Shown here piece by piece: positions 4,195 to 51,465 of a stretch of 64,000 nt of DNA. Each line of letters opens with the position of its first letter. The first letter of the stretch is position 1. The notes under the pieces were generated by a model that did no database searches, was not told the origin of the DNA, and saw only the letters and a program-made list of their open reading frames with translations. Source of the DNA: Prevotella sp. UBA6994 (GTDB lineage Bacteria; Bacteroidota; Bacteroidia; Bacteroidales; Bacteroidaceae); contig DJXW01000019.1 of the NCBI GenBank assembly GCA_002449845.1, positions 21,174 through 85,173 on the forward strand, in the 5' to 3' direction. Both the position numbers and the translations under genes were made by a program.

Positions 4195-7100
4195 TGCTTC
4201 TTCGGTTGTTTGTTCAGTCGGAACACCACGTGCAGCAGGGCGTAGCGGGGCATGACGTTGGTCCAGGTCTCGGTGCGTCCCTGGGCGTTGAGGGTTCGTG
4301 TGACGTTGCTGAGTTGGCCGAGCAGGTCGAAGCCATCGAACACGACGAGGAGTCGGCCCTTGAGGAAGGGGCGAGAGAGGCGTGCGTTCCACACCAGGTC
4401 GTTGGTGTTCAGCGCCTCGTCGGCATAGCCCGTGCGTGAGTAGAGGGTGAGGTCGGTCGAGAGGTCGAGCTTCCACGGCAGCTTCAGGATGGCGGCAAGT
4501 GAGGTGCGGCAGGTGAAGGCGCTGAAGTCCTGGAAGTCCGGTCGGTCGCTGCTGAGGCGTTCCCACACGGGTTGGCAAACGAGGTCGAAGTGGTGCTTGC
4601 CGATGTCGGCCTTGAACGAAGGCAACATCGAGATGGCGAGGCGTTTGACTTTAGAACGCTGCGGACCAGTCGACATCGCTGCATCACTGGCCGTCGTACC
4701 CACGAGGTCGACGCTCTGGCTGTGGGTGACGTGGAAGGGGAGGTCGAGATTCAGCTTCTTGGCCGAGTCGAGGGCGCAGTGGAAGGTGTAGCCGGCATCG
4801 GTGGTGTAGTTGCCGTTGACGTTCTCCGGCCGGTAGGTGCGTGCACCCGTCCGGACGTCGTAGGTGCAGCCCATCGCAATGGCATTGAAGGTGCGCATTT
4901 GGTGCCATTCCATGTAGTGATAGCCTCGCTTGAACCTATAGACGCCATTTACGCCGAAGTCGGGCGTGACAGACGGATGCAGACGGGTGTTACCCAGCCG
5001 GATGTTCATCGGGTCGGTGTCGTCGCGCAGGTCGATGCGTTGCTCCAGTGCGGGCAGCGCCTGACGAATGCCCATGGTCATTCCTATCTGGCCGTTCTTG
5101 AGGTCGAGGAAGGTGTTGTCGTCGAGGGTGATGCTGACGGCTGTGCGGCAGAGCGTGGTGTCGATGCTGCCGCGCTGGTAGTCGAGGTGCTGTTGGTGGA
5201 GGGTGATGTTGCCGTTGAGCAGCGTCCATATCTGGCCGTACCGGGCCTTGTTGAACTTATAGCCGAGGTTGATGTCGAGCCTGTGGCTGTTCTCGCGCAT
5301 GCGACTGTCGAAAGTGTTGGTGCTGTCCATCACCTGCTGGTAGTCGGTCACGGAGGGCTGTTCGTCGATGGCTGCAGACGAGCCTACCCCCTGCCCCTCC
5401 CCAAGGGAGGGGTGAAGGCGGTCGAGCAGGTAGAGCGACGAGCGGCGGTGGCGCCAGTTGTGGGTGAAGTAGTAGGTGGCGTGGATGGAGCGCCAGCCCT
5501 CGCCCAGCGGGATGTTGTAGCCTGCGGTGGCTTGGATGGTGCCGTTGCGGTCGGGGTGGTTGTCGGTGAAGTGGTGGAAGGAGGTGGAGGGGTGCTGTGA
5601 TACAGCACCATACTCGACCGACTGGCGGTTGAAGAGGTGCTCGTCGCGGTCGCTGTAGCTGACGGTGGCACCGAGGCGCAGGTTCTCGTTGGAGTGCGGA
5701 ATCTTCACCGTTGCTCCGGTGTTGAACGTGCCCTCCAGGGCATGTCCACGGCCGAGACCCTGCCGCAGAATGCGGTTGACGAGCGTGTCGCGCAGGTTGA
5801 CGCGTGAGGCCGTGGGACTGAACAGCTCGTCGAGCAACCGTCGGCTGACGTCGGCTACGGGCGCGTTGAAGGTGGCTGAGGCAAAGTCAGAGTTGTGATT
5901 GAAGTGGTGGTATTGCAGGTTGGGACTGATGTGCCAGCGCACGCTCTTGTGGTTGCGGTAGAAGTCATGATAGGAACTCAGCCGCAGGTCCTCGTTGCGG
6001 CTGTTGCTGAAGCTATGGTCGTAGAGATCGCCCGATGGCAGGTAGTTTTGGCGCACGGTGCGCGTCTCGCCTTCCGTCCGCTGGTGGTTGACCGAGGCAT
6101 CGCCGCGATACTCCCACCGCTTGTTGCGGTCGCTGACCCAGAAGCTGAGGTCGGCCCGCTCCGTGCGGCGCAGGGCATTGCCAGCCCGCTGCCAGTTGTC
6201 GCTCTCACCTGGTTGGCTGTCGTCGTCCAGGTTGTTGGCGTTGGCAACGATGGCCAGTCGCGAGAAGTCGCTGTGGCGCATAGCGAAAAGGCGGGCAAGG
6301 TAGCGGTCGCCAGTGCCGCCTCCCACTTCGGCATTGGCTATCCAGCCTATCATGTATTCTTTCTTCAGTCGCACGTCGATGACGTGGCGCTGGGTCTGTA
6401 GGTCCTTGATGCCGAGCCATTCGTTCTCGTCGGTCTGCTTGTCGTAGATGGCTATGTCCTTCACGGTGTAGGCAGGCAGGTTTTCGAGCATGAGCTTACG
6501 GTCCTTACTGAAGAACTGCTTGCCGTTGAGCAGCAGGTCGTCCACGAACTTGCCCTCGTGGTAGATGCGGCCGTCGCGCTTCAGCTCCACGCCCGGCAGC
6601 TGACTGATGAGGGCGTCGAGCATGGAGCCTTCGGCCAGAATGAAGGCATCGGCATTATAGATAATGGTGTCGCCCTTGTAGTAGAACTTCACACGGGAGG
6701 CCGTAACCGGCACTTCGGGCAGCATGGTCGAGACGGGAGCCAGATAGAGCGGAGGCAGCGACCGCTCGTGCTCGCGACGGCCTACGCGCTCCAGCTTGTA
6801 GTCGACGTAGGCCGTGCGGTGGCCCACGAAGCTGATGCGGAAGATGTACTTGGCGGGCAGGGCGGGCACCGTGAAACTGAATTCGCTGGTCTCCCACTCG
6901 TATACCTTCCCATCTTCACCACTGCCCCACCAGTGATGCTTGGCCACAACCTGCTGCAACACGGTGCTGTCGGCATCGAGCAGCTCGACGGTGGCACCGA
7001 TAAGCGGCTTGTGGGCGCGGATGTCCCGCACCTCACCGTTCAGCTTTAGTTTCCTGACCTCCCGCCGCTTGTCGTATTGCACGGTGATTCTCCGTCCGTT

Positions 7101-7394
7101 CACCTTCACTTTCACGGGCAATCCCTTACATAGACGCTTCACGGCTTCGGGAGCTGTAAGCCCTGTCACAGAGGCAGAAGTGGTCAGGTCTTGCAGCCCG
7201 TCCGATAAAATGTCGATGGTATAGGTCTTCTGCCCGTGACTGATGTTCTGTATGGCGTCGAGGAGGCTCACTTTCTGTTTTTTTCCTCCTTGTGGAAGGG
7301 ATGCTTTCGATTGCGCCCTCGTCAGCATGGGTGTGGCAGCTGGTAGGAGCGTAAGGAGTGAGACTATAATAATAAGGTGTATGATCTTTCTCAT
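4191..7394 (-). CDS. Outer-membrane beta-barrel protein with STN-like, carboxypeptidase-regulatory-like and plug-like domains, copy 1
   Basis: The track ORF 4191..7427 begins at a GTG. I prefer the ATG at 7392-7394 (MRKIIHLIIIVSLLTLLPAATPMLTRAQS). Motifs: STN-like LLDAIQNISHGQKTYTIDILSDGL...GLPVKVKVNGRRITV, CarbopepD_reg-like LNGEVRDIRAHKPLIGATVELLD, and plug-like VKFYYKGDTIIYNADAFILAEGSMLDALISQLPGVEL. Confidence 0.85.
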   Translation of the reverse strand: MRKIIHLIIIVSLLTLLPAATPMLTRAQSKASLPQGGKKQKVSLLDAIQNISHGQKTYTIDILSDGLQDLTTSASVTGLTAPEAVKRLCKGLPVKVKVNGRRITVQYDKRREVRKLKLNGEVRDIRAHKPLIGATVELLDADSTVLQQVVAKHHWWGSGEDGKVYEWETSEFSFTVPALPAKYIFRISFVGHRTAYVDYKLERVGRREHERSLPPLYLAPVSTMLPEVPVTASRVKFYYKGDTIIYNADAFILAEGSMLDALISQLPGVELKRDGRIYHEGKFVDDLLLNGKQFFSKDRKLMLENLPAYTVKDIAIYDKQTDENEWLGIKDLQTQRHVIDVRLKKEYMIGWIANAEVGGGTGDRYLARLFAMRHSDFSRLAIVANANNLDDDSQPGESDNWQRAGNALRRTERADLSFWVSDRNKRWEYRGDASVNHQRTEGETRTVRQNYLPSGDLYDHSFSNSRNEDLRLSSYHDFYRNHKSVRWHISPNLQYHHFNHNSDFASATFNAPVADVSRRLLDELFSPTASRVNLRDTLVNRILRQGLGRGHALEGTFNTGATVKIPHSNENLRLGATVSYSDRDEHLFNRQSVEYGAVSQHPSTSFHHFTDNHPDRNGTIQATAGYNIPLGEGWRSIHATYYFTHNWRHRRSSLYLLDRLHPSLGEGQGVGSSAAIDEQPSVTDYQQVMDSTNTFDSRMRENSHRLDINLGYKFNKARYGQIWTLLNGNITLHQQHLDYQRGSIDTTLCRTAVSITLDDNTFLDLKNGQIGMTMGIRQALPALEQRIDLRDDTDPMNIRLGNTRLHPSVTPDFGVNGVYRFKRGYHYMEWHQMRTFNAIAMGCTYDVRTGARTYRPENVNGNYTTDAGYTFHCALDSAKKLNLDLPFHVTHSQSVDLVGTTASDAAMSTGPQRSKVKRLAISMLPSFKADIGKHHFDLVCQPVWERLSSDRPDFQDFSAFTCRTSLAAILKLPWKLDLSTDLTLYSRTGYADEALNTNDLVWNARLSRPFLKGRLLVVFDGFDLLGQLSNVTRTLNAQGRTETWTNVMPRYALLHVVFRLNKQPKKQ
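5394..5412. repeat. GC hairpin CCCCTCCC-caa-GGGAGGGG inside the CDS, in frame
   Basis: Perfect 8-bp stem (5394-5401 / 5405-5412). It encodes part of HPSLGEGQGVGSS. Confidence 0.7.
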
Positions 7395-8845: not shown

Positions 8846-10264
8846 ATGAAGAAGAATTACCCAGTATTACTTTTGTCGTTGTTCGTGATGTTGGCAGTTT
8901 CCGTGAAGGCTTATTCTGCCGACAAGAAAGTGGCTTATCCAGGAGGAAAACACTGGCTTGTGCGTGTGTCGCTTGCCGACAAGAAAGGAACACCATACCG
9001 TTTGAGCAAGCCAGAACGGTTCTTGAGTGCGAGAGCCATTGAAAGACGCAAACGACAAGGAATCTCTGTAGATTCCACCGACCTGCCCATTACGCCGGCA
9101 TATATAGAACAAATCCGCAAGCAAGGTTTTGAAGTGGTTTGCCAAAGCAAGTGGAACAACACTGTATTGGTTAAAAATGTTTATGAAGATGGCTTAGAAA
9201 AACTGAAACAATTGCCATTCGTGAAAGACGCAAAGAATGTCTTTCATGCTCCCGACTCCTTTAACGTGCCAAAACGAAGTGAGTTAGAAAACATTCCATA
9301 CAAGCAAGACAGCGTGGAAAATAAGGAACACGGACTTGCCCACCGTCAGATAGACATGATGAATGGCATACGTTTGCACGAGGCAGGATTCCGTGGAAAG
9401 GGTATGTTGATAGCCATTCTCGATGGCGGCTTCATGAATGTGGACAGTATCCCTGCATTCACGACGGTGAACATCATCGGTACGAAAGACTTCTCTACTC
9501 CCAAGTCTTCAAATATCTATTCAGAATTAGACCACGGCACGATGGTACTTTCTACCATGGCAACCAATCTCCCACATATATATATAGGTACGGCTCCGGA
9601 GGCTTCCTATTTGTTGATACGGACAGAAGCTGGAGCAACGGAGAGCTTGGCAGAGGAAGATTTCTGGGCAGCTGGAGCTGAATATGCCGACTCTATGGGC
9701 GTGGACATCATCAATTCGTCATTGGGCTACACCACGTATGACGACAAGTCAACCAGTCATGTCTATGCTGACTTAGACGGAAACACGTCGTTTGTTTCTC
9801 GTACAGCTTCACGATTGGCAGCCAAGGGAATCGTCTTGACGAACAGTGCAGGCAATTCGGGTAGTGGCACTTGGAAGAAAATAGGTGTTCCAGCCGATGC
9901 GAGAGATATATTGGCGGTAGGAGCCATCACCAAGAACAAGGTCAATACAGTGTTTAGTTCTGTGGGACCATCGGCAGACGGTAGGGTGAAACCCGATATC
10001 ATGGCTATAGGCAATGCCTGTTGGCTCATCAAAGGTAACGGAAAGATAGGCACAGCCAACGGAACCTCATTCGCCTCGCCATTGGCTTGTGGGATGGTGG
10101 CTTGCTTATGGCAAGCCTTACCCAATAAGACCGCCTTCGAAATCATGGACTTGGTGCGTCGTTCGGCTCATCAATACCATCAGCCTGACAATATTTTCGG
10201 TTATGGAATACCCGACTTCTGGAAAGCATATCAAAACGGAGGACAAGGGATAGCTAATGAATGA
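8846..10264 (+). CDS. S8 family serine peptidase (subtilase) with signal peptide
   Basis: Catalytic triad contexts IAILDGGF (Asp), LDHGTMV (His) and NGTSFASPLACG (Ser). N-terminal signal MKKNYPVLLLSLFVMLAVSVKAYS. Confidence 0.9.
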   Translation: MKKNYPVLLLSLFVMLAVSVKAYSADKKVAYPGGKHWLVRVSLADKKGTPYRLSKPERFLSARAIERRKRQGISVDSTDLPITPAYIEQIRKQGFEVVCQSKWNNTVLVKNVYEDGLEKLKQLPFVKDAKNVFHAPDSFNVPKRSELENIPYKQDSVENKEHGLAHRQIDMMNGIRLHEAGFRGKGMLIAILDGGFMNVDSIPAFTTVNIIGTKDFSTPKSSNIYSELDHGTMVLSTMATNLPHIYIGTAPEASYLLIRTEAGATESLAEEDFWAAGAEYADSMGVDIINSSLGYTTYDDKSTSHVYADLDGNTSFVSRTASRLAAKGIVLTNSAGNSGSGTWKKIGVPADARDILAVGAITKNKVNTVFSSVGPSADGRVKPDIMAIGNACWLIKGNGKIGTANGTSFASPLACGMVACLWQALPNKTAFEIMDLVRRSAHQYHQPDNIFGYGIPDFWKAYQNGGQGIANE

Positions 10265-11591
10265 CTTGTTTTGGCATAGTGAGGAGAAGACTCATCGCTC
10301 AACCCTGACCTTGTATGAGTTGAATCAGTTGGTGAGAGAGACATTGCAGATAGAAATGCCTGATGAGTATTGGGTGGAGGCGGAACTGTCTGAGGTGCGT
10401 GAAGTGCGTGGACATTGTTATATGGAACTCATTCAGAAAGACCTTTTCAACCATACGCCCATTGCGCGCGCCTCTGCAAAATGCTGGAAAAACACGTGGA
10501 TGAAGATAGGTCCTAAGTTTGAGCACGTCACTCGTCAGCCTTTGCACGTTGGTCTTCAAGTTTTGCTCAAGGTACGTGCCGACTTTCACGAAGCATACGG
10601 TTTCTCTTGGATTATCTCAGATATTGACCCAACTTTCACGTTGGGAGACATGGCGAAGAAACGACAGGAAATCATTCGGCAACTCAAGGAAGAGGGTGTC
10701 TATGATTTGCAAAAAGAGTTGCAATTGCCCCTTTTCACTCAGCGCATAGCCGTCATTTCCAGTGAGAATGCGGCAGGATACGGCGACTTCTGCAACCAAT
10801 TGGCCAACAATGACGATAACTTGAAGTTTTATATACGTCTGTTTCCTGCCATCATGCAAGGAGAACAAGTAGAACAAAGCATTATCTCTGCGCTTAATCA
10901 AATCAATGAACGGTTAGACGATTTCGATGTGGTGGTAATCATCAGAGGTGGAGGTGCAACGGCTGATTTGTCAGGATTCGATACGTTAAGCTTGGCCGAA
11001 AACGTTGCCAATTTCCCATTGCCCATCATCACAGGTATCGGACACGAGCGTGATGAGAGCGTGTTGGATATGATTTCCCATACTCGCGTAAAGACTCCCA
11101 CCGCCGCCGCCAGTTTCTTGATAGAGCATTTATCGCACGTATATGAGAGGGTGGAGAACTGCAGGTCAGAGATTTCGCATCTGGTAAGCAGGAGGATGGA
11201 AGTGGAGAAGATGCGATTGGAGAAATTGGCTGAGAAGATTCCCGTGCTCTTCTCTTTGGTGAAATCCAGGCAAGAAATGTTTCTGGAGAAATGCAATAGT
11301 AGAATCATTTATGCGGTAAGAGAGATATTGACCACGCAAACATATCGTTTAGAGCAATTAAACATGAAGTTTGCGCCTCTCAAAGACCATGTTTTCACTC
11401 GCGAAAGACACCGTTTGGAATTGTTGTCTCATCGCATAGAGGCATTAGACCCTGCCCTGTTGCTCAAACGAGGATATAGTATCACGTTGCACAATGGCAA
11501 GTCGGTGCGCAATCCCGACGAACTATGCAATGGAGATGAGATAGAGACGAGAGTGGAGAAGGGAAAAGTGAAATCGGTAGTGATTAAATAA
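10257..11591 (+). CDS. xseA: Exodeoxyribonuclease VII large subunit
   Basis: 444 aa. OB-fold N-terminus (YWVEAELSEVREVRGHCYMELIQK), catalytic core IAVISSENAAGYGDF...IIRGGGATADL...TGIGHERD. It is followed by xseB. Confidence 0.95.
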   Translation: MNDLFWHSEEKTHRSTLTLYELNQLVRETLQIEMPDEYWVEAELSEVREVRGHCYMELIQKDLFNHTPIARASAKCWKNTWMKIGPKFEHVTRQPLHVGLQVLLKVRADFHEAYGFSWIISDIDPTFTLGDMAKKRQEIIRQLKEEGVYDLQKELQLPLFTQRIAVISSENAAGYGDFCNQLANNDDNLKFYIRLFPAIMQGEQVEQSIISALNQINERLDDFDVVVIIRGGGATADLSGFDTLSLAENVANFPLPIITGIGHERDESVLDMISHTRVKTPTAAASFLIEHLSHVYERVENCRSEISHLVSRRMEVEKMRLEKLAEKIPVLFSLVKSRQEMFLEKCNSRIIYAVREILTTQTYRLEQLNMKFAPLKDHVFTRERHRLELLSHRIEALDPALLLKRGYSITLHNGKSVRNPDELCNGDEIETRVEKGKVKSVVIK

Positions 11592-43618: not shown

Positions 43619-43691
43619 TACACCCTTAGGGATTCGAACCCTAGACCCACTGATTAAGAGTCAGTTGCTCTACCAACTGAGCTAAGGGTGC
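43619..43691 (-). tRNA. tRNA-Lys (anticodon CTT)
   Basis: Reverse complement GCACCCTTAGCTCAGTTGGTAGAGCAACTGACTCTTAATCAGTGGGTCTAGGGTTCGAATCCCTAAGGGTGTA folds as a cloverleaf with anticodon loop CT-CTT-AA and T-loop GGTTCGAATCC. A TACCTTTG box lies upstream. Confidence 0.93.
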
Positions 43692-43803: not shown

Positions 43804-46800
43804 TCATTGTTCTAAGATGGAAAATTCAGCACCTGTAGCGAAGTCTTGACCATCTTGTGAACTCAAGGCATTGAATCTGAGATAGCGGGCTTTCACGGGT
43901 TGAGAGAAGAGAATTTTCTTCTCTTTCTTGTCGTTGGCAAACGTTCCTTGGCAAATAGGGTATCCCCATGTCTTACCATCGTTGCTCACTTGAATGCTGT
44001 ATTCCTTGATGTTTCCGTTGCTACTGTCTTGACGTGGAAGATACGCAAATCCTTTCAACATCTTCGTCGTTCCGCAATCAAAGTCCACCCAGTGGGGATA
44101 GTTGGCTACCGTTACGCTCCACATCGTATGCCAGTAGGTGTTGGGGTTTCCGTCCACCAAGTGTTCGGCATTGCCTTCGCCACTCTCTACGCTGGAGGCA
44201 AAAGATACAGTCACAGGGATATGGTCGATGCGTTCAAATTCCTTGCTGTTCACTATCCACTCACAGCCTTGCTCGTATGCCTTCACCGTACCGCCATTGC
44301 GCAGGTTAAACGTTCCTGTGTAACGTTGGGGTTTGGAAGAGCGTTTCTTGTTCTTGGCATTTGTCCCGTCATTGACAAGGAAATAAATGGGCTGATGATT
44401 TTCCTTCGTGGAAGAAATGGCAACGTTGCCTTCTGCGTCTCGCTCAATGATGAGTGGAGCTGGTCCTGCTGGTTGCACCATTGATGGCTTGTTGGTGGCT
44501 GGTCGGATGATGAAGGCAAAGGTGTGAGGCGTTGCCTTGACGCGGTCGTATTCTAACGGAGCACCTTGTCCGCAACTGTTTCCACCCAGACCTGTGATGG
44601 CGATGTCGAGATGAAGCGTGTTGTGATTGCTGATGGGCAGCTCATGCGGATGTTTGGCTTGAGCCAGTTCTTGCGCAGTCCAAGGCAGGATGGAGAACGA
44701 CATCTTGTCTTTGGGCATCAGCAATAAGCCCTTGCCTTGGTCGTTTGTCAACTGGCAGTAACGGGTGTCTTGGTGATTGCCCATGTCTTGTGGCTTGGGG
44801 AAGTTTTCAAACTCTTTCTCCACCTTATTATTATATATACGTATGAACTGACCGCTCTTTCTGTCGGGATAGTTGTCGATAGGACCACGACCGTAGTAGG
44901 TGAGGTTGTTCAACGACTTGGGCAAGCGGATGCTGTAACCCAACCGTGGCAATACCACCGTGGGATTGTTGGACGTGATGGCTGATTGTACCTCAATGGT
45001 TCCATCAGCATAAACGGTATAGATAATGTTGTTTTGGAAACAGAAGTCGTTTCCGTCTGCTTGTGATTGGGTGGTAAAGGCAAGGCTCACCGAACCGTCT
45101 TCGTTTACATGCTTGTTCCATGACAATACTTTCTGTTGCAGACGGTCCAGACCGTGCTGATACCACGATGTCTGTCCCCAGTTGTCGTTGTTGACGGGCG
45201 CACGGAAAGCATCGAGCAGTAATCCATCATGACCGTCAATCATTTCCTCATTGCCATATTGCAAACTGTATATAGTGCCTTTTTTCAAATCGAACGAAAC
45301 ATGGAATTGGTTTCCGTCAGACAAGTTGAGCAGGTCGTTTGTTGGCTCAGACAGTTGCAAGGTTCCTTTCATGGAGAGGGCAGGGCGTTGTTCAGCCTGT
45401 TTTACCATCAATTGTTCGTCTGCCTGTACGAACCCGCTCTTTGCCCAAGGTGTATCGTGTTTCTGCCTAAACTCAATGGTGAGGAAATACTCACGGTGGT
45501 CGAGAGCTTGGGGATTGAGACCATCTATGCTGACCGTCTTATGCTTGCGGGGTGCAATGCTTCCCACTTCAATCTTTCCTTCCTTGACCTTCTCGCCATC
45601 AGCTTCCAATGTGTAGAAACAATCGTAAGAACTCAAGTCGTCGGTATAGTAGTTCTTGTTGAAGATGTCGATGGTCCCAGTCTTCTCGTCGTTCCATTTA
45701 ATGCCAATGTTTTGGTACACTTTCTTCACCTCGTAATATTGTGGCTTAGGTTCCATATCGCCAAAGATGATTCCGTTCATCACAAACTCCCGATCATTCG
45801 GCGTGTCTCCGAAATCACCGCCGTAGGCCAAGTATTTGATGGTTGAATTACGATGGTTGATGGGGGAAGTTGTCGCTAATGGCGAGGATGAAGTTGCGAG
45901 GGAAGATGTACTTCCTTCCTTCGTCCTTTCGTTCTGACTTCCTCCATCGTAATTCCTCCTTCCTCCATAATTATAAAGGCTCTGGTCAATCCAGTCCCAG
46001 ATGGCTCCGCCACAGAAGAAGTTGGTAGATTCGATAGCCTCCCAATAGTCGATGAGGTTTCCTACTGCATTTCCCATGGAGTGAGCGTATTCCGAGATGT
46101 GGAAGGGATATTTGATGTTCATGTTGCCTTTCACAGCCGAACGCACCCAGTTCACGGATGGGTATTGGTTACTGCCCATGTCAACGATGTCGTTGTTGCG
46201 CTCATATTGCACGGGACGACTGGTGTCGAATGCCTTTACCGCAGCGTAGGATGCCTTGAAGTTGTCGCCAGGACCAGCCTCGTTTCCTAAACTCCAGATG
46301 GCAATACAGGGGTCGTTCACACGTGAGTGTGCCAACTCCATCATCCTGGCGATGTGTGCGGGTCTCCATTCTATCGGGTGGGAGAGAGAAGCCTCACCGT
46401 AGTAGTATTCATGACTTTCCAAGTTTGCCTCAGCCTCTAACCAAATACCGTATTTGTTGCAGAGGTAATAGAAATATGGGTCGTAAGAGTAATGCGAGGT
46501 ACGCACGTGGTTGATATTGGCTCGTTTCATCATCATCACTTCCTCGCGCATCTGCTCACGGGTAATGGCGTGACCAGTGGCAGGGTTCGTTTCGTGGCGG
46601 TTTACACCTTTCAACTTCAATGGCTTCCCGTTGATGAGGAAATACCTGCCTGCCAATCCAAACTCGTCTTCAGAAGCAGGCACGTCCTTGATTTCCACTG
46701 TGCGGAAACCTACTTGTGTGGAAACTACTTCCTTCACGCGACCTTTCTTGTCTTTGAGCTTGGCTACGAGCACGTAAAGGTTGGGTTCCTCGCTGGTCCA

Positions 46801-47880
46801 TGTCTTGACGTTGTTGACGGTGATAGATGCCGTTCCGATGCAAGTGGTGTTGGGAGCCATTCCACGGTCAGAGCCCGTATCCTTTTCTGTCATGATTTGG
46901 CAATCTACGAGTTCGTTGTCATCAGCATAGAGTTTGTTGGCGTATAATTCATATTCTACCTTATATCCCTTGACTGTTTTGGTGCTTAGGTTCTCCAAGG
47001 TGGTTTCTATCTTCATGTTACCATCCGCTTGCGCATGAACCACGAGGTCTTGGATGTGTACCTTCGGTGTGGCATAAACGTTCACCGAACGGAAGATACC
47101 TGGCAGACGGAACATATCTTGTGCTTCGAGGAACGAACCGTCGGAATTGCGATATACTTCCACGCTGATGGAATTGTCGCCTATGTGTGCAAAGCGGGTG
47201 ATGTCGAAACGTGCCGCATCACGGGAGTTCTTGGAAAATCCCACATATTGTCCGTTCACCCACAGGTAGAAGAATGAATCCACACCGTCAAACTCCACGA
47301 ACAATTCTTCTCCCTTCCACGTCTTGGGAATGGTGAAGGTTCGACGATAAGAGCCCACCTCATTGCGGTATTTGTATGTGGTCCAGTTGGTGGGAGGGGT
47401 GCGCATCACGCCTTCTCGCCAATCGTCTTTCTTCACTTGGTGGTAGAAGATGACGGGTTGGTTCACGTAGATAGGTGTGCCGTATTTTTGGCTACCGTCT
47501 TGCTGTATGCCTATGATGTTCCAGTTGGAGGGGACGATGACATCGTCCCAGACGGAACAGTCGAAGGTTGGGAGATAGAAGTCTTTAGGGCGCTCGTCGG
47601 GGGTCTTGGCGAAATGGAATTTCCATGTGCCGTTGAGACTCATGCGATGCGAGCTGTACTCTGGCAATACGTGGCGAGCCTCTTCTACGTTAGCGAACGA
47701 GGCAAACCATGCACGGGGTTGCAGCTTATTGTAACCCAACAGCATGGGCGATTGCCATTCTTCTCCCGTGGGAGCCTTGTCGTTACCATATTGAAAACCT
47801 TCCAGAGGTTTATTGTCGGCATGAGCGACAAGAGTGAAGCACCACAATAAGGATGCTATGAATAGTTTGGTCTTTGTCAT
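43804..47880 (-). CDS. GH2 beta-galactosidase with C-terminal F5/8 type C (discoidin) domain
   Basis: Signal peptide. IAIWSLGNEAG (acid/base), HISEYAHSMGN (nucleophile), GGAIWDWIDQSL, AYGGDFGDTPND. C-terminal AEHLVDGNPNTYWHTMW is discoidin-like. Confidence 0.93.
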   Translation of the reverse strand: MTKTKLFIASLLWCFTLVAHADNKPLEGFQYGNDKAPTGEEWQSPMLLGYNKLQPRAWFASFANVEEARHVLPEYSSHRMSLNGTWKFHFAKTPDERPKDFYLPTFDCSVWDDVIVPSNWNIIGIQQDGSQKYGTPIYVNQPVIFYHQVKKDDWREGVMRTPPTNWTTYKYRNEVGSYRRTFTIPKTWKGEELFVEFDGVDSFFYLWVNGQYVGFSKNSRDAARFDITRFAHIGDNSISVEVYRNSDGSFLEAQDMFRLPGIFRSVNVYATPKVHIQDLVVHAQADGNMKIETTLENLSTKTVKGYKVEYELYANKLYADDNELVDCQIMTEKDTGSDRGMAPNTTCIGTASITVNNVKTWTSEEPNLYVLVAKLKDKKGRVKEVVSTQVGFRTVEIKDVPASEDEFGLAGRYFLINGKPLKLKGVNRHETNPATGHAITREQMREEVMMMKRANINHVRTSHYSYDPYFYYLCNKYGIWLEAEANLESHEYYYGEASLSHPIEWRPAHIARMMELAHSRVNDPCIAIWSLGNEAGPGDNFKASYAAVKAFDTSRPVQYERNNDIVDMGSNQYPSVNWVRSAVKGNMNIKYPFHISEYAHSMGNAVGNLIDYWEAIESTNFFCGGAIWDWIDQSLYNYGGRRNYDGGSQNERTKEGSTSSLATSSSPLATTSPINHRNSTIKYLAYGGDFGDTPNDREFVMNGIIFGDMEPKPQYYEVKKVYQNIGIKWNDEKTGTIDIFNKNYYTDDLSSYDCFYTLEADGEKVKEGKIEVGSIAPRKHKTVSIDGLNPQALDHREYFLTIEFRQKHDTPWAKSGFVQADEQLMVKQAEQRPALSMKGTLQLSEPTNDLLNLSDGNQFHVSFDLKKGTIYSLQYGNEEMIDGHDGLLLDAFRAPVNNDNWGQTSWYQHGLDRLQQKVLSWNKHVNEDGSVSLAFTTQSQADGNDFCFQNNIIYTVYADGTIEVQSAITSNNPTVVLPRLGYSIRLPKSLNNLTYYGRGPIDNYPDRKSGQFIRIYNNKVEKEFENFPKPQDMGNHQDTRYCQLTNDQGKGLLLMPKDKMSFSILPWTAQELAQAKHPHELPISNHNTLHLDIAITGLGGNSCGQGAPLEYDRVKATPHTFAFIIRPATNKPSMVQPAGPAPLIIERDAEGNVAISSTKENHQPIYFLVNDGTNAKNKKRSSKPQRYTGTFNLRNGGTVKAYEQGCEWIVNSKEFERIDHIPVTVSFASSVESGEGNAEHLVDGNPNTYWHTMWSVTVANYPHWVDFDCGTTKMLKGFAYLPRQDSSNGNIKEYSIQVSNDGKTWGYPICQGTFANDKKEKKILFSQPVKARYLRFNALSSQDGQDFATGAEFSILEQ
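45845..45955. repeat. 111-bp palindromic repeat element inserted in frame in the GH2 gene
   Basis: Perfect 12-bp terminal inverted repeats GAATTACGATGG (45845-45856) and CCATCGTAATTC (45944-45955). Central hairpin GGAAG-atgta-CTTCC. Blocks are shared with 48451-48630. Confidence 0.85.
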
Positions 47881-48113: not shown

Positions 48114-48869
48114 TTAGTTTTCTGCTAACTGTTTTTTCCATTTATAATATCCGGCAATGGCGATGATGACATAAAGCCCATAGAGTGAAGCCTTGAACGG
48201 AATGTCTTTGTAGAAATACAACACGCACGTTACTACATCAACGACAATCCAGATAAGCCATTGCTCCAAATACTTACGCGCCAACGCCCAAATGCCCACC
48301 ATGCTCAATGCCGTGGTAAAGCTGTCGGCGATGGGTACGCGTGAGTCGGTGTAAGTAACCAATAACCACCAGATGGTTGCCCAAATGGCAAGTGTGCCTA
48401 TCGTCCACGGTAAGATATACTTTCGCTCAAAGTGAGTGCATTTGAAGGATGAATTAGGATGGTCGATGGTTGAAGTTGTCGCTGAAGGCGAGGGTTGATG
48501 TTCGATGGTTGAATTACGATGTTCGATGGTTGAATTTGGAAGTGTTTCGCTTGTCAGCGAGGACGAAGTTGTGAGGGAAGATGTACTTCCATCCTGCGGC
48601 TCAGCCGCACCCCTTCCTCCTTCGTAATTCTTCCTTCCTCCTTCAAAAAACTTCCACATGATGAAGCCATAGAAGGACATTCCGAGATAGTAGAACTCCA
48701 TGCCGCAGTCGGCATAGAGTCCTTTTTGGTAACAGAGTACGATTCCCAAGGATTCCATCAGGATTCCCACCAACCACAACCAGATGCTTGCCTTGTATTC
48801 CAGGATGATATAGACAAGTCCTAAGACTGTGGTGGTGATGTCAAGCCAATATTCTCGTAGAAAGTCCAT
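48114..48869 (-). CDS. pnuT: PnuC-family transporter, thiamine-type (PnuT-like), carrying a repeat-encoded loop insertion
   Basis: PnuC-like TM pattern (GLVYIILEYKASIWLWLVGIL..., WIVVDVVTCVLYFYKD). It lies downstream of a TPP-riboswitch-controlled TonB-dependent receptor. Confidence 0.8.
   Translation of the reverse strand: MDFLREYWLDITTTVLGLVYIILEYKASIWLWLVGILMESLGIVLCYQKGLYADCGMEFYYLGMSFYGFIMWKFFEGGRKNYEGGRGAAEPQDGSTSSLTTSSSLTSETLPNSTIEHRNSTIEHQPSPSATTSTIDHPNSSFKCTHFERKYILPWTIGTLAIWATIWWLLVTYTDSRVPIADSFTTALSMVGIWALARKYLEQWLIWIVVDVVTCVLYFYKDIPFKASLYGLYVIIAIAGYYKWKKQLAEN
48451..48630. repeat. 180-bp copy of the same palindromic element, in frame in pnuT
   Basis: Ends GAATTAGGATGG / CCTTCGTAATTC (10 of 12 complementary). 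Shared blocks GAAGTTGTCGCTGAAGGCGAGG and GAAGTTGTGAGGGAAGATGTACTTCC. The internal 21-bp unit gttcgatggttgaattacgat is repeated. Confidence 0.85.
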
Positions 48870-48880
48870 TGTTTGTTATC

Positions 48881-51310
48881 TTAGAATCTTAGCGTCAGAC
48901 TACTCATACATGTGAAGCCTGACATGGGGATAAATCCTATCTGGTAATAGCGGTTGTCGTTGGTGTGACCATAGCTCTCGGCAATGGCTGAGTACACCCA
49001 ACCGCTGGCAGCGTAGCGTCGGCTGAAGATGTTGTTGAAGTTCATCCCTACCGTTATCTCCTTGATGCCCAGTGCCTTCTTCACCTTCGATGTATAACTG
49101 AGGTTGAGGTTTGAGGTGCTGTAGCAAGGTAATGAGCGGTCAGCATTCTCCGTGTTGTCAAGGTATTGGCGGCTCACGTAGTTGGTGTGCCATACGGCTT
49201 GCCAACCTTGGTAATGCAGGTTGATGAATCCGTTGATAATCACAGAGGGCGAGAATGCAAGAGTAGAGTTGTCATAATGGAACTCACGCAGCTCGTCTCC
49301 GTTGCCGTCGCAATGATATTTGGCTGCATCGGTATTGCCTTCCCAGTCGTCCCAGTCTTCTACGAACTCATGAAAATCCTTGATTTTGTTTTTGCTCAAT
49401 GTGGCATTTCCTTCGATGGTGAGCCAACGGGTGATGTTCCAGCCAGCCGTCAACTCTATACCCATGCGGTAAGACTTGTCGATGTTGGTAGTCAACTTTT
49501 CACCGATGTCGCTCACGGCTCCGGTCTGCACGAATTGGTCTTTGTAATTCATGTAATAGAGGTTGGCGCCAACCCTGAAAGCAGAGCTCTCAAACTGGTA
49601 ACCTGCCTCGAAGTCGAGCAGTTGCTCTGCCTTGGGAGCGGGATAGTTGCTGTTGTCGGTGAAGTTGTTGCGTTCTGGCTCACGATGGCTCCATGCTACC
49701 GAACCATAGACCAGGTGGTTGCCCGAACGATAGCTGATACCAGCCTTGGGATTGAAGAAATCGTATTTCTTGTCGATGTTTAGGAATTGCTTGCTGTAAG
49801 TGCCATCGTTGTTGTCTTTAAACTTGTCGTTGTAGCCATCGGTCTTATATCCCACGTGGCGATATTGCACGTCGCCAAACATGCTCAAGTGGCTGTTGAT
49901 ATAATAGGTGGCTTTGAGGAAAGCAGAACCGTCCAACTTCTTCGCATCTGAATCGTAATACTGATAGTCGCCGTTGGCAAGCAGGTACTTGCTCAATGCT
50001 GCGTTCGATACGTATGTGAGGTAACCGAAATGGTTGCCTGAGAAATTCTGCAAAGACAATCCGCCGATGATATCCCATGCGTCTTTTTTGTAATTGATGT
50101 TCCAAATCAGTCCGTAGGTATCTTGTTTCAGACCTTTCTTTCGCACGAAGTCGCTTTTCTTCACCGTTGAACCGTCGGGAGCAGTATAGTTGCTCAGTCC
50201 AAACTTCTTCAACTTATTGTCGTATCTGAACTCATTGTAATATCCATAGCCGTGTGTGTAGTGCAGAGATGCGGTGGTTGACCAATAGGGGTTGATGTCC
50301 CAGACAGCAGAGAGAATGTTACGGTTCTGCCAGAAATTGTCAGTGGCTTTGTCCCAATAATTACCATCGCTCATCTTGTATCGGTTGGCAATGTAGTTGC
50401 CGTTGGCATCTTTGGCGGGGTTGCCGTCGTTGTCGTAAGCCATTGTCTCATAGAGGGTGTTGTATTTGCCAAATCCCGCATTGTACAGGTCTTTATAGGT
50501 CTTGATGCCTGTCTTTGCCCCGTATGTACCATCCATGAGCGACAGGTCGTTGTCGCCTGCGGTAACACCGTTCCATGCCTGTCCCGTTCTCTCGAAATTA
50601 CCGAAGTGCTTGTAACGAATGGTGAGTTTGTTGTTTACGAAACTCAATCCTCCGTAATACGAACCCGAGCGACCTTTGGTACCGTGGATGAACCCGTCGG
50701 TGTTGGTCTCGTGGTACGCTCCGTCTAAAATCCAGTGATTGCCAAACAATCCCGTGGAGAAAGCTCCTCCGAGGTTATAGGTGTTGAACGAACCGTATGA
50801 GCCAGACAACTCACCCCATGCCTCGTCGGTTGGTGCTTTAGATGTCAGTGAGAGGGCTCCGCCAAATGCTCCGTCACCGTTGGTAGATGTTCCCACGCCA
50901 CGTTGAATCTGTACGCTACCCAACAATGAGCCATAACTGTTCATGTTTGCCCAGAACACACATTGGTCTTCGGGCGAGTTGAGAGGCACACCGTCTAACG
51001 TGACGTTGATGCGTGAGTCGCCGGCACCACGAATACGCATATACGTGGTACCCGTTCCTAATCCGTTCTCACTCCATGCCAAGATGCCTGGAGTCTGTGA
51101 GAAGAGGAATGGCAGTTCCTTACCCGTCTTTGAGAATGCGTCTAATTCCTTTTTCTTGATGTTGGCAATGGCAAACGGCGCGTCTTTCTGCGCACGCACA
51201 CCCTTTACCACCACCTCCTGCAATTGTTCCAATCGCAGGGAGTCAACTTCTTGAGCCGTGGCAATTGTGGATAATCCCACTGCGATACAAGTTAAAAATG
51301 TTTTTTTCAT
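48881..51310 (-). CDS. TonB-dependent receptor (thiamine-associated, OMthi-like)
   Basis: Signal peptide, plug (TYMRIRGAGDSRINVTLDGVPLNSPEDQ), long barrel, and C-terminal ...SSLTLRF. A TPP riboswitch lies in the leader. Confidence 0.9.
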   Translation of the reverse strand: MKKTFLTCIAVGLSTIATAQEVDSLRLEQLQEVVVKGVRAQKDAPFAIANIKKKELDAFSKTGKELPFLFSQTPGILAWSENGLGTGTTYMRIRGAGDSRINVTLDGVPLNSPEDQCVFWANMNSYGSLLGSVQIQRGVGTSTNGDGAFGGALSLTSKAPTDEAWGELSGSYGSFNTYNLGGAFSTGLFGNHWILDGAYHETNTDGFIHGTKGRSGSYYGGLSFVNNKLTIRYKHFGNFERTGQAWNGVTAGDNDLSLMDGTYGAKTGIKTYKDLYNAGFGKYNTLYETMAYDNDGNPAKDANGNYIANRYKMSDGNYWDKATDNFWQNRNILSAVWDINPYWSTTASLHYTHGYGYYNEFRYDNKLKKFGLSNYTAPDGSTVKKSDFVRKKGLKQDTYGLIWNINYKKDAWDIIGGLSLQNFSGNHFGYLTYVSNAALSKYLLANGDYQYYDSDAKKLDGSAFLKATYYINSHLSMFGDVQYRHVGYKTDGYNDKFKDNNDGTYSKQFLNIDKKYDFFNPKAGISYRSGNHLVYGSVAWSHREPERNNFTDNSNYPAPKAEQLLDFEAGYQFESSAFRVGANLYYMNYKDQFVQTGAVSDIGEKLTTNIDKSYRMGIELTAGWNITRWLTIEGNATLSKNKIKDFHEFVEDWDDWEGNTDAAKYHCDGNGDELREFHYDNSTLAFSPSVIINGFINLHYQGWQAVWHTNYVSRQYLDNTENADRSLPCYSTSNLNLSYTSKVKKALGIKEITVGMNFNNIFSRRYAASGWVYSAIAESYGHTNDNRYYQIGFIPMSGFTCMSSLTLRF

Positions 51311-51379
51311 GAAACCTTATTTTATAAGATTCGCAAGATGGCTTGCGAAAACTAATGATACAATAAGGGGGAGAGAAAG

Positions 51380-51465
51380 AATAAATTCCTACGCAGGCAT
51401 TACCCTGTTCAGGTTTGAGGGTCTAATCTCAGCCCGCCAACAAGCGAGCACCCCTTAACTTACCG
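51380..51465 (-). promoter_or_regulatory. TPP (THI-box) riboswitch
   Basis: Minus strand: GGGGTGCTCGCTTGTTGGCGGGCTGAGATTAGACCCTCAAACCTGAACAGGGTAATGCCTGCGTAGGAA. It carries the conserved CUGAGA, ACCUGA, UAAUGCC and GCGUAGGAA blocks. The downstream hairpin TTCGCAAG-ccat-CTTGCGAA (51330-51349) is a possible expression platform. Confidence 0.88.

Follow-up and report, generated by a model that had tools for sequence, protein, structure and literature searches.

An in-frame palindromic segment shared by the neighbouring pnuT and GH2 beta-galactosidase genes of a Prevotella genome: a candidate translated repeat element

How do two neighbouring genes of unrelated families come to contain the same palindromic segment, in frame in each and with both open reading frames (ORFs) intact? 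The question is raised by a 64,000-nt stretch of Prevotella sp. UBA6994 DNA (assembly GCA_002449845.1, contig DJXW01000019.1, positions 21,174 to 85,173), referred to below as the window, in which a gene for a PnuC-family transporter, PnuT (48114..48869, minus strand, 251 aa), adjoins a gene for a GH2 beta-galactosidase (43804..47880, minus strand, 1358 aa, with Pfam GH2 domains). The two insertion sites lie 2.6 kb apart on the same strand. A first-pass annotation of the window had described the segment in pnuT, placed at 48451-48630, as a second, longer copy of an element inserted in the GH2 gene, lying in frame in the central loop of the transporter. [quoted passage not shown]

The likeness of the PnuT and GH2 segments is real and beyond chance. 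A blastn search of the PnuT segment against the window aligned 48501-48641 with 45835-45966 of the GH2 gene at 76.8% identity over 142 nt (E 8e-23) and gave no match of note besides the GH2 segment; a second alignment (48440-48517 with 45834-45911, 68.6%) exposed an internal duplication in the PnuT copy. The end motifs and blocks quoted at first as common to both insertions were all found in place, including GAATTAGGATGG (48451-48462) and CCTTCGTAATTC (48619-48630), which form the core of the inverted repeat. The 18-nt core GAGGGAAGATGTACTTCC and a 26-nt end motif each occur twice in the 64 kb, compared with 0.04 and 0.00 occurrences expected from dinucleotide shuffles. The ends of the unit are discrete and common to both copies, the flanking sequences are not homologous, and both copies share one reading frame within their minus-strand genes. 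Between the two copies, a 27-nt core (GAAGTTGyGAGGGAAGATGTACTTCC plus flank, at 48573-48599 and 45889-45915) differs by one mismatch, compared with an identity of about 70% over the remainder. The near-identity of this core could be due to gene conversion between the neighbouring copies or to a structural constraint. In the PnuT orthologues of three related loci (L006, L007 and L017) the core reads ACGTC, and the PnuT copy of the window has ACATC, the same as in GH2.

The architecture of the element was derived from five copies aligned in gene orientation. Among them the most complete unit, with 147 nt encoding GGRRNYDGGSNAAKPQDERTKEGSTSSLATSSSPLATTSTVNHLNSTIK, comes from the GH2 gene of a sister Prevotella sp. 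metagenome-assembled genome (MAG; GCA_017441865.1, locus L007). It starts with a purine-rich arm (GGAGGAAGGAGGAATTACGA...), continues through a GCGGC-aaa-GCCGC hairpin, a spacer, a GGAAG-tacat-CTTCC central hairpin and a TCGC-loop-GCGA hairpin, and ends with a pyrimidine-rich arm (...CCATCtTAATTCAACCATC) that is complementary to the purine-rich one. In the basic unit, of about 147 nt, the inverted-repeat cores on the coding strand are GGAATTACGA in the purine arm and TCGTAATTC in the pyrimidine arm, and the terminal sequences are GGAGGAAGGAGGAATTACGATGG / CCATCGTAATTCAACCATC. The GH2 copy of the window (45835..45966, minus strand) comprises 132 nt, or 44 codons (peptide GGRRNYDGGSQNERTKEGSTSSLATSSSPLATTSPINHRNSTI(K)), and is bounded by a 19-nt terminal inverted repeat (45838-45856 / 45944-45962) that is 84% complementary. 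The whole PnuT copy, with limits drawn from its homology with the GH2 copy, spans 48441..48641 (minus strand) and comprises 201 nt, or 67 codons (peptide GGRKNYEGGRGAAEPQDGSTSSLTTSSSLTSETLPNSTIEHRNSTIEHQPSPSATTSTIDHPNSSFK); the limits of 48451-48630 (180 bp) given at first are those of the inverted-repeat cores and stop short of the full homology, and the lengths of both copies are multiples of three under the revised limits too. The terminal inverted repeat of the PnuT copy, 26 nt and 77% complementary, reaches 6 nt (TTTGAA / TTCAAA) past the part shared with GH2.

Read in gene sense, the PnuT copy opens with the 5' arm (48612..48641, minus strand), whose purine-rich coding strand GGAGGAAGGAAGAATTACGAAGGAGGAAGG holds the terminal inverted-repeat core GAATTACGA. 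A GCGGC-tca-GCCGC hairpin (48596..48608, minus strand) is followed by the conserved core GAGGGAAGATGTACTTCC (48573..48590, minus strand), which contains the central hairpin GGAAG-atgta-CTTCC and makes up, with the flank GAAGTTGyGAGGG, the 27-nt block. Inside the first 3' arm lies a 21-nt tandem of GATGTTCGATGGTTGAATTAC (48497..48536, minus strand; Tandem Repeats Finder), which encodes NSTIEHR-NSTIEH, and the copy closes with a second 3' module (48441..48500, minus strand) that consists of a TCGC-loop-GCGA hairpin and a terminal inverted-repeat arm ending ...CCTAATTCATCCTTCAAA. The duplication is seen as a direct repeat, D2 (48441-48478 vs 48501-48538, 84% identity, 60-nt spacing), and the expansion of the PnuT copy is due mainly to this duplication of the ~60-nt 3' module. 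Two further details of the first-pass annotation had to be amended. The 21-bp unit has 1.9 exact copies and one degenerate copy in place of about three, and one unit is absent from L006 and P0003. The GCGGC hairpin, taken at first for an extra of the PnuT copy, is ancestral: the sister GH2 copy, that of L007, has it too, as GCGGCaaaGCCGC, and the GH2 copy of the window lost 15 nt there, hairpin included. The PnuT copy of the window has suffered a different 15-nt loss, of the codons for GRRKE in L006, L007 and L017.

On the transcribed strand both copies fold strongly, the GH2 copy at -42.1 kcal/mol (z -4.45) and the PnuT copy at -59.4 kcal/mol (z -3.96), and in neither case was any of 200 shuffles as good. 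The purine-rich arm is, in addition, periodic at 7 nt (coding-strand unit AGGAAGG, 4.7 copies at 48612-48644; Tandem Repeats Finder), and this repeat is expanded in some orthologues (L017 345-400; P0002), which gives an extra GGRKKDGG. The same arm is full of GGAGG, a Shine-Dalgarno-like motif. Shine-Dalgarno pairing plays a minor part in Bacteroidota, and a GGAGG-rich coding sequence may for that reason be harmless there.

Where the insert sits is evident from the matches of the host proteins. The PF04973 match of PnuT (7.5e-51, Pfam) is broken into two stretches that flank the insert, the protein also matches TIGR01528, and the PnuC structure 4QTN aligns with residues 5-73 and 164-247; the gap between residues 73 and 164 therefore places the insert between transmembrane helices 3 and 4 (TM3 and TM4), just after TM3 (...YGFIMWKF). 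Comparison of PnuT orthologues, suggested at first as a check, found the full insert in close relatives only. Most of the best 120 PnuT homologues, all of Prevotella type, have 195-210 aa and a loop of about 12 residues at the insert site, and among these 120 and the loci examined the full insert is confined to relatives with at least 90% identity (P0001-P0004, L006, L007, L017 and L048), each with in-frame indels of its own. Of the two outcomes named at first as refuting the idea, a lack of significant nucleotide alignment and an insert universal among PnuT orthologues, neither was observed. The picture is similar in GH2. The alignments of all solved LacZ-type GH2 proteins extend to query residue 635-641 and pick up again past the insert, with 5-8 residues there versus about 45, and removal of 45835-45966 leaves a loop of normal length. 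An assembly artefact was ruled out, as the insert is present in at least four independent assemblies: the NCBI MAG GCA_017441865.1, ENA ERZ12289766, JGI Ga0310691 and JGI 3300002641.

The TM3-TM4 loop of PnuT is very variable in length across Prevotella lineages. Between alignment columns ~95 and 185, expanded loops occur in P0012, P0015, P0016, P0025, P0034, P0054, P0059, P0088, P0091, P0098 and P0111, and they consist of tandem or low-complexity sequence unrelated to the insert (QGSKVQGSRVQGSR..., repeated SSSQVSEAQSSVAE, NTQNTQNSQNTQ). Apparently the loop is a hot spot at which additional sequence is generally tolerated.

Only one of the six reading frames is free of stop codons in the GH2 and PnuT copies of the window and in the GH2 copy of L007, as seen by six-frame translation. 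Because of this, survival in a needed gene ties a copy to one orientation and one frame. The use of the same frame in two unrelated genes had been ascribed at first either to selection against frame-disrupting insertions or to a frame-aware insertion bias; the former is supported by the single open frame, and the latter is not needed, since one stop-free frame and purifying selection suffice. Within that frame the insert is free to change. Between the window and L007, the codons of the inserts differ by 12 nonsynonymous and 7 synonymous-only changes, compared with 30 nonsynonymous and 89 synonymous changes in the rest of both genes (Fisher exact p = 0.002), and all the internal gaps that we recorded (15, 15, 21 and 102 nt) fall within the inserts and are multiples of three. 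The host genes, including the flanks of the inserts, are under purifying selection, and the insert drifts with the keeping of the frame as its sole limit.

The composition of the translated peptide is set by the palindrome: Gly, Arg, Glu and Lys come from the purine-rich arm, and Ser, Thr and Pro from its pyrimidine-rich complement. Both compositions suit a surface loop. In the PnuT insert, 24 of the 67 residues are Ser or Thr and mean hydropathy is -1.09. In an AlphaFold 2 (AF2) model, residues 76-144 have a predicted local distance difference test (pLDDT) score of 30-36 and no secondary structure, which hints at a disordered loop in a model that is poor as a whole (mean pLDDT 53). The side of the membrane that the loop faces, a point raised by the first-pass annotation, would be cytoplasmic by the positive-inside rule, as a count of Lys and Arg over alternate loops gives at least 10 for the side that holds the C-terminus and the TM3-TM4 loop versus 5 for the other. 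Two special roles of the segment were considered and rejected. The O-glycosylation motif of Bacteroidetes, D-(S/T)-(A/I/L/V/M/T), is absent from the insert peptides, and the segment is too small for an intein or another self-splicing element and has no catalytic motifs.

Decayed copies in other lineages date the insertions relative to lineage splits. PnuT of P0005 / L033, with 68% identity, retains a shortened remnant FFNGRKAKEGTTSTIDTSSSQTETTSTVAAQSSSFKC, whose DNA aligns with the unit at E 6e-9 (blastn); about 34 residues of the insert are lost in L033. The PnuT copy is therefore older than the split from the L033 lineage. Similarly, in the syntenic GH2 of L029/L030, which is 80.5% identical, the two ends of the insert survive (VGRRNFEGGS-TSSI), and deletions of 102 nt in total, between short direct repeats, have taken away 34 of the 48 insert residues in L029; the GH2 copy is therefore older than that split. 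The 77% identity between the two copies would fit a comparable age of both. L029, the lineage with only a remnant of the GH2 copy, has in its PnuT loop (10240-10306) a 15-nt inverted repeat, 93% complementary, with its arms 37 nt apart (TTCAAGGAGTTCAGA / TCTGAACTCCATGAA), which may be a strongly decayed trace of the same or of another palindromic insert.

A palindromic insertion that is translated would produce such a pattern in the following way. The element would have landed in the stretch of pnuT encoding the TM3-TM4 loop and would have entered two genes, PnuT and GH2, possibly by a local hop. The ribosome would read the insert through into a Gly-, Arg-, Ser- and Thr-rich peptide that is hydrophilic and probably disordered, and copies would be kept only in the single open orientation and frame, in which they give a harmless loop, presumably neutral for transport. 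Thereafter the copies would decay almost neutrally through slippage between short internal repeats, with host selection letting multiple-of-three indels pass. Such events would include the 15-nt deletions in both copies of the window, the 21-nt tandem duplication and the duplication of the ~60-nt 3' module in PnuT and, in another lineage, the 102-nt deletion in the GH2 copy.

Several observations weigh against this explanation, first of all the confinement of the element to two sites in adjacent genes. A census of further copies, which had been proposed for both insertions at the outset, found pnuT and GH2 as the only insertion sites. No third copy was detected in the window by blastn or motif scan, nor was an insertion sequence or transposase with matching ends, and related Prevotella loci (~140 kb, including 8-10 kb past the window ends) yielded orthologous copies only. 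A scan of 185,579 GTDB species-representative genomes for exact GAGGGAAGATGTACTTCC, a pattern that missed the ACGTC variant of the PnuT orthologues, gave 5 chance matches, none of them in Prevotella and none with TCGTAATTC. Of 21 matches to the degenerate core GGAAGTACRTCTTCCCTC in JGI metagenomes one was real, the PnuT orthologue of L017; scans of IMG/VR with three patterns (the core and both arms) gave chance matches only, and a blastn search of plasmid and phage collections with the unit gave no match. Inspection of both junctions, the ends of which are not fixed, revealed no convincing direct repeat that could be a target-site duplication. The exact ends of the element could not be fixed because no empty-site GH2 orthologue occurred among the loci examined; none was obtained beside the more distant PnuT homologues either, L031, L032, L036 and L037 being without a GH2 neighbour. 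Also, removal of 48441-48641 from PnuT leaves about 3 residues between WKF and THF versus the ~12 of the homologues, which means that the insert has imprecise limits or that PnuT has lost its native loop. Finally, RNAalifold found no useful covariation among six copies (covariation term +0.81) and no compensatory changes.

Peptide searches were weak nulls, as all of them also missed the known carriers: a profile built from five insert peptides had no match at E <= 1, a search with the 49-aa unit peptide found no word-sharing candidate, and phmmer with the 67-aa peptide had 0 matches among 1.84 billion representatives. The DNA scans required exact 17-18-mers and could have passed over a family with the degree of divergence that these two copies show outside the core. 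Taken together, the census argues against a young, abundant family and is compatible with an old or low-copy one.

The explanation that survives best after that of a translated mobile insertion is a local copy event, which we regard as possible but less likely. A quasi-palindrome could have arisen once, in pnuT or in GH2, by a strand-switch or snap-back replication error in an expansion-tolerant loop, and then have been copied over 2.6 kb into the neighbour by template switching or ectopic repair, with no need for transposition machinery. The adjacency of the two sites on one strand, the empty census, the failure to find a target-site duplication or a cognate insertion sequence, and the proneness of the PnuT loop to length change in many Prevotella lineages would all follow readily, as would the 6 nt by which the inverted repeat of PnuT exceeds the part it has in common with GH2. 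However, such an event does not easily account for discrete ends common to both copies with non-homologous flanks, or for the composite build of terminal inverted repeats and three internal hairpins, which resembles known MITEs and RPEs. Moreover, local hopping of a transposable element predicts the same neighbourhood pattern, and a census that needed exact words, or failed on low-complexity peptides, could have missed diverged copies.

A more far-reaching form of the mobile-insertion hypothesis, which we consider rather doubtful, is that the two copies belong to an undescribed family of coding-compatible palindromic mobile elements in Prevotella and perhaps in other Bacteroidota. The arms of such elements may be built so that one frame always gives a harmless disordered peptide rich in Gly, Arg, Ser and Thr, allowing them to colonise loops of essential proteins, and the two copies may be what can still be seen of a larger family, most members of which have diverged or are unsampled.

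It is improbable that the insert is kept because it has become useful, either as a peptide (a flexible linker in the cytoplasm, a segment for regulation or interaction, or a site of modification) or as an mRNA hairpin that acts on translation or stability of the operon transcript. Long retention in two genes over several lineages would agree with a function, and so would the strong fold, the single mismatch in the 27-nt core against an overall identity of ~77%, and the small hairpins, in which the stems are kept and the loops vary (TCGC-cauua / ugacaa / cuuca-GCGA). However, the raised nonsynonymous to synonymous ratio and the frequent large indels, of which the losses in the L029 GH2 and L033 PnuT copies are the most extensive, point to relaxed constraint, the stems show no compensatory base-pair changes, the insert region has no Pfam family, and most PnuT and all solved GH2 homologues work without it. 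That the segment is merely an ancestral long loop of a PnuT clade, similar to GH2 through composition, is hardly credible: both peptides are Ser/Thr/Gly-rich and low-complexity segments may resemble each other, but the likeness extends to the nucleotide level, with shared terminal inverted repeats and with exact motifs of 18 and 26 nt that do not arise in shuffles, and homologues do without the segment.

The surroundings of the host genes are of a familiar kind. The gene upstream of pnuT in the same operon encodes an OMthi-like TonB-dependent outer-membrane receptor (48881..51310, minus strand), in the orthologues of which the Plug and TonB_dep_Rec_b-barrel domains were found, and the operon is preceded by a thiamine pyrophosphate (TPP) riboswitch (51368..51465, minus strand; Rfam RF00059, 60.4 bits, above the gathering score). 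The order of riboswitch, OMthi and pnuT is an operon type known in Bacteroidetes (PMC5613172). The riboswitch supports thiamine as the substrate, and, given PF04973 and the riboswitch and receptor context, the PnuT label for 48114-48869 is justified. A tRNA gene (43619..43691, minus strand; Rfam) lies directly downstream of the GH2 gene, and at the gathering threshold Rfam matches nothing in the window except the tRNA and the riboswitch. In another Prevotella lineage (L032, GCA_017428055.1) a reverse-transcriptase gene (PF00078, 437 aa, 6005-7318) lies directly upstream of the TonB receptor-PnuT operon; the PnuT of this lineage is without the insert.

In-frame palindromic repeats in working genes are documented mainly for Rickettsia, and the Prevotella case would show that the phenomenon is not bound to reductive intracellular genomes. 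It would also exemplify the conversion of non-coding repeat DNA into new protein sequence: in the membrane transporter a loop of 67 residues, and in the beta-galactosidase one of 44 residues close to the active-site barrel. In practical terms, inserts of this kind split domain matches, as the two Pfam stretches of PnuT illustrate, and they can be accompanied by faulty gene calls: the public call of the PnuT orthologue in GCA_017441865.1 (L007 9809-10588) begins at an internal Met and gives 195 aa, although the full-length ORF is intact. If there are two copies only, they are a curiosity of local genome evolution; if the undescribed family exists, it is a counterpart of RPEs in free-living gut and rumen bacteria.

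How, then, does the element compare with known repeats? MITEs are multi-copy elements of 50-800 bp, usually with target-site duplications and often with a partner insertion sequence. The Prevotella element is like them in its small size (132-201 nt), its non-autonomy, the only open frame being that of the host, its terminal inverted repeats and its strong hairpin fold. It differs from them in being intragenic, and its two sites in place of many count against its inclusion. With no convincing target-site duplication at either junction and no partner insertion sequence in the window, it is best taken for a candidate MITE and not filed as a proven one. About 90% of MITEs are intergenic (PMC11602168), and intragenic ones of the enterobacterial repetitive intergenic consensus (ERIC) type are occasionally joined in frame to host genes where the copy is ORF-compatible (Delihas 2007, cited in PMC10969869). 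Within Bacteroidales, the BrickBuilt MITE of Porphyromonas gingivalis is always intergenic, is present in 19 copies per genome and has promoter activity (PMC4596501). BrickBuilt and the present element, compared by description and not by sequence, both have small inverted-repeat ends and a copy-variable internal tandem (23 nt there; 21 and 7 nt here), whereas the present element is intragenic, translated and confined to two sites. The other loop expansions of Prevotella PnuT share with it the TM3-TM4 position, a hydrophilic make-up with much Ser, Thr and Gln, and the tolerance of the transporter; they differ in being simple direct tandems with no inverted termini and no paralogous copy elsewhere. 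Repetitive extragenic palindromic (REP) sequences and bacterial interspersed mosaic elements (BIMEs) are imperfect palindromes of 20-40 nt located between genes, and identity with them was rejected for an element of 132-201 nt inside coding sequence.

The closest resemblance in behaviour is to RPEs, palindromes of ~150 bp that are inserted in frame in unrelated Rickettsia genes of housekeeping or metabolism and translated (Ogata et al. 2000 Science, as summarised in PMC10969869); a single Rickettsia conorii genome has 44 copies, which fall into ten families (PMC10969869). As with RPEs, a palindromic unit (132-147 nt here) lies in frame in unrelated genes at tolerated positions, and only frame-compatible copies survive; the translated copies have one open frame in six, and the host ORFs are intact. 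The sites are likewise compatible with the fold of the host protein, that in GH2 coinciding with the 5-8-residue loop of solved homologues and that in PnuT falling between the blocks aligned with 4QTN. Unlike RPEs, which have many copies per genome, the element occupies two sites in neighbouring genes, a further point against equating the two, and its host is a free-living gut or rumen Prevotella (Bacteroidota), not an obligate intracellular alphaproteobacterium. The likeness drawn here is one of behaviour, and the mobility of the Prevotella element is presumed. In these terms, the element is a palindromic in-frame insert of RPE-like kind, in a phylum new for such inserts and with a very low known copy number.

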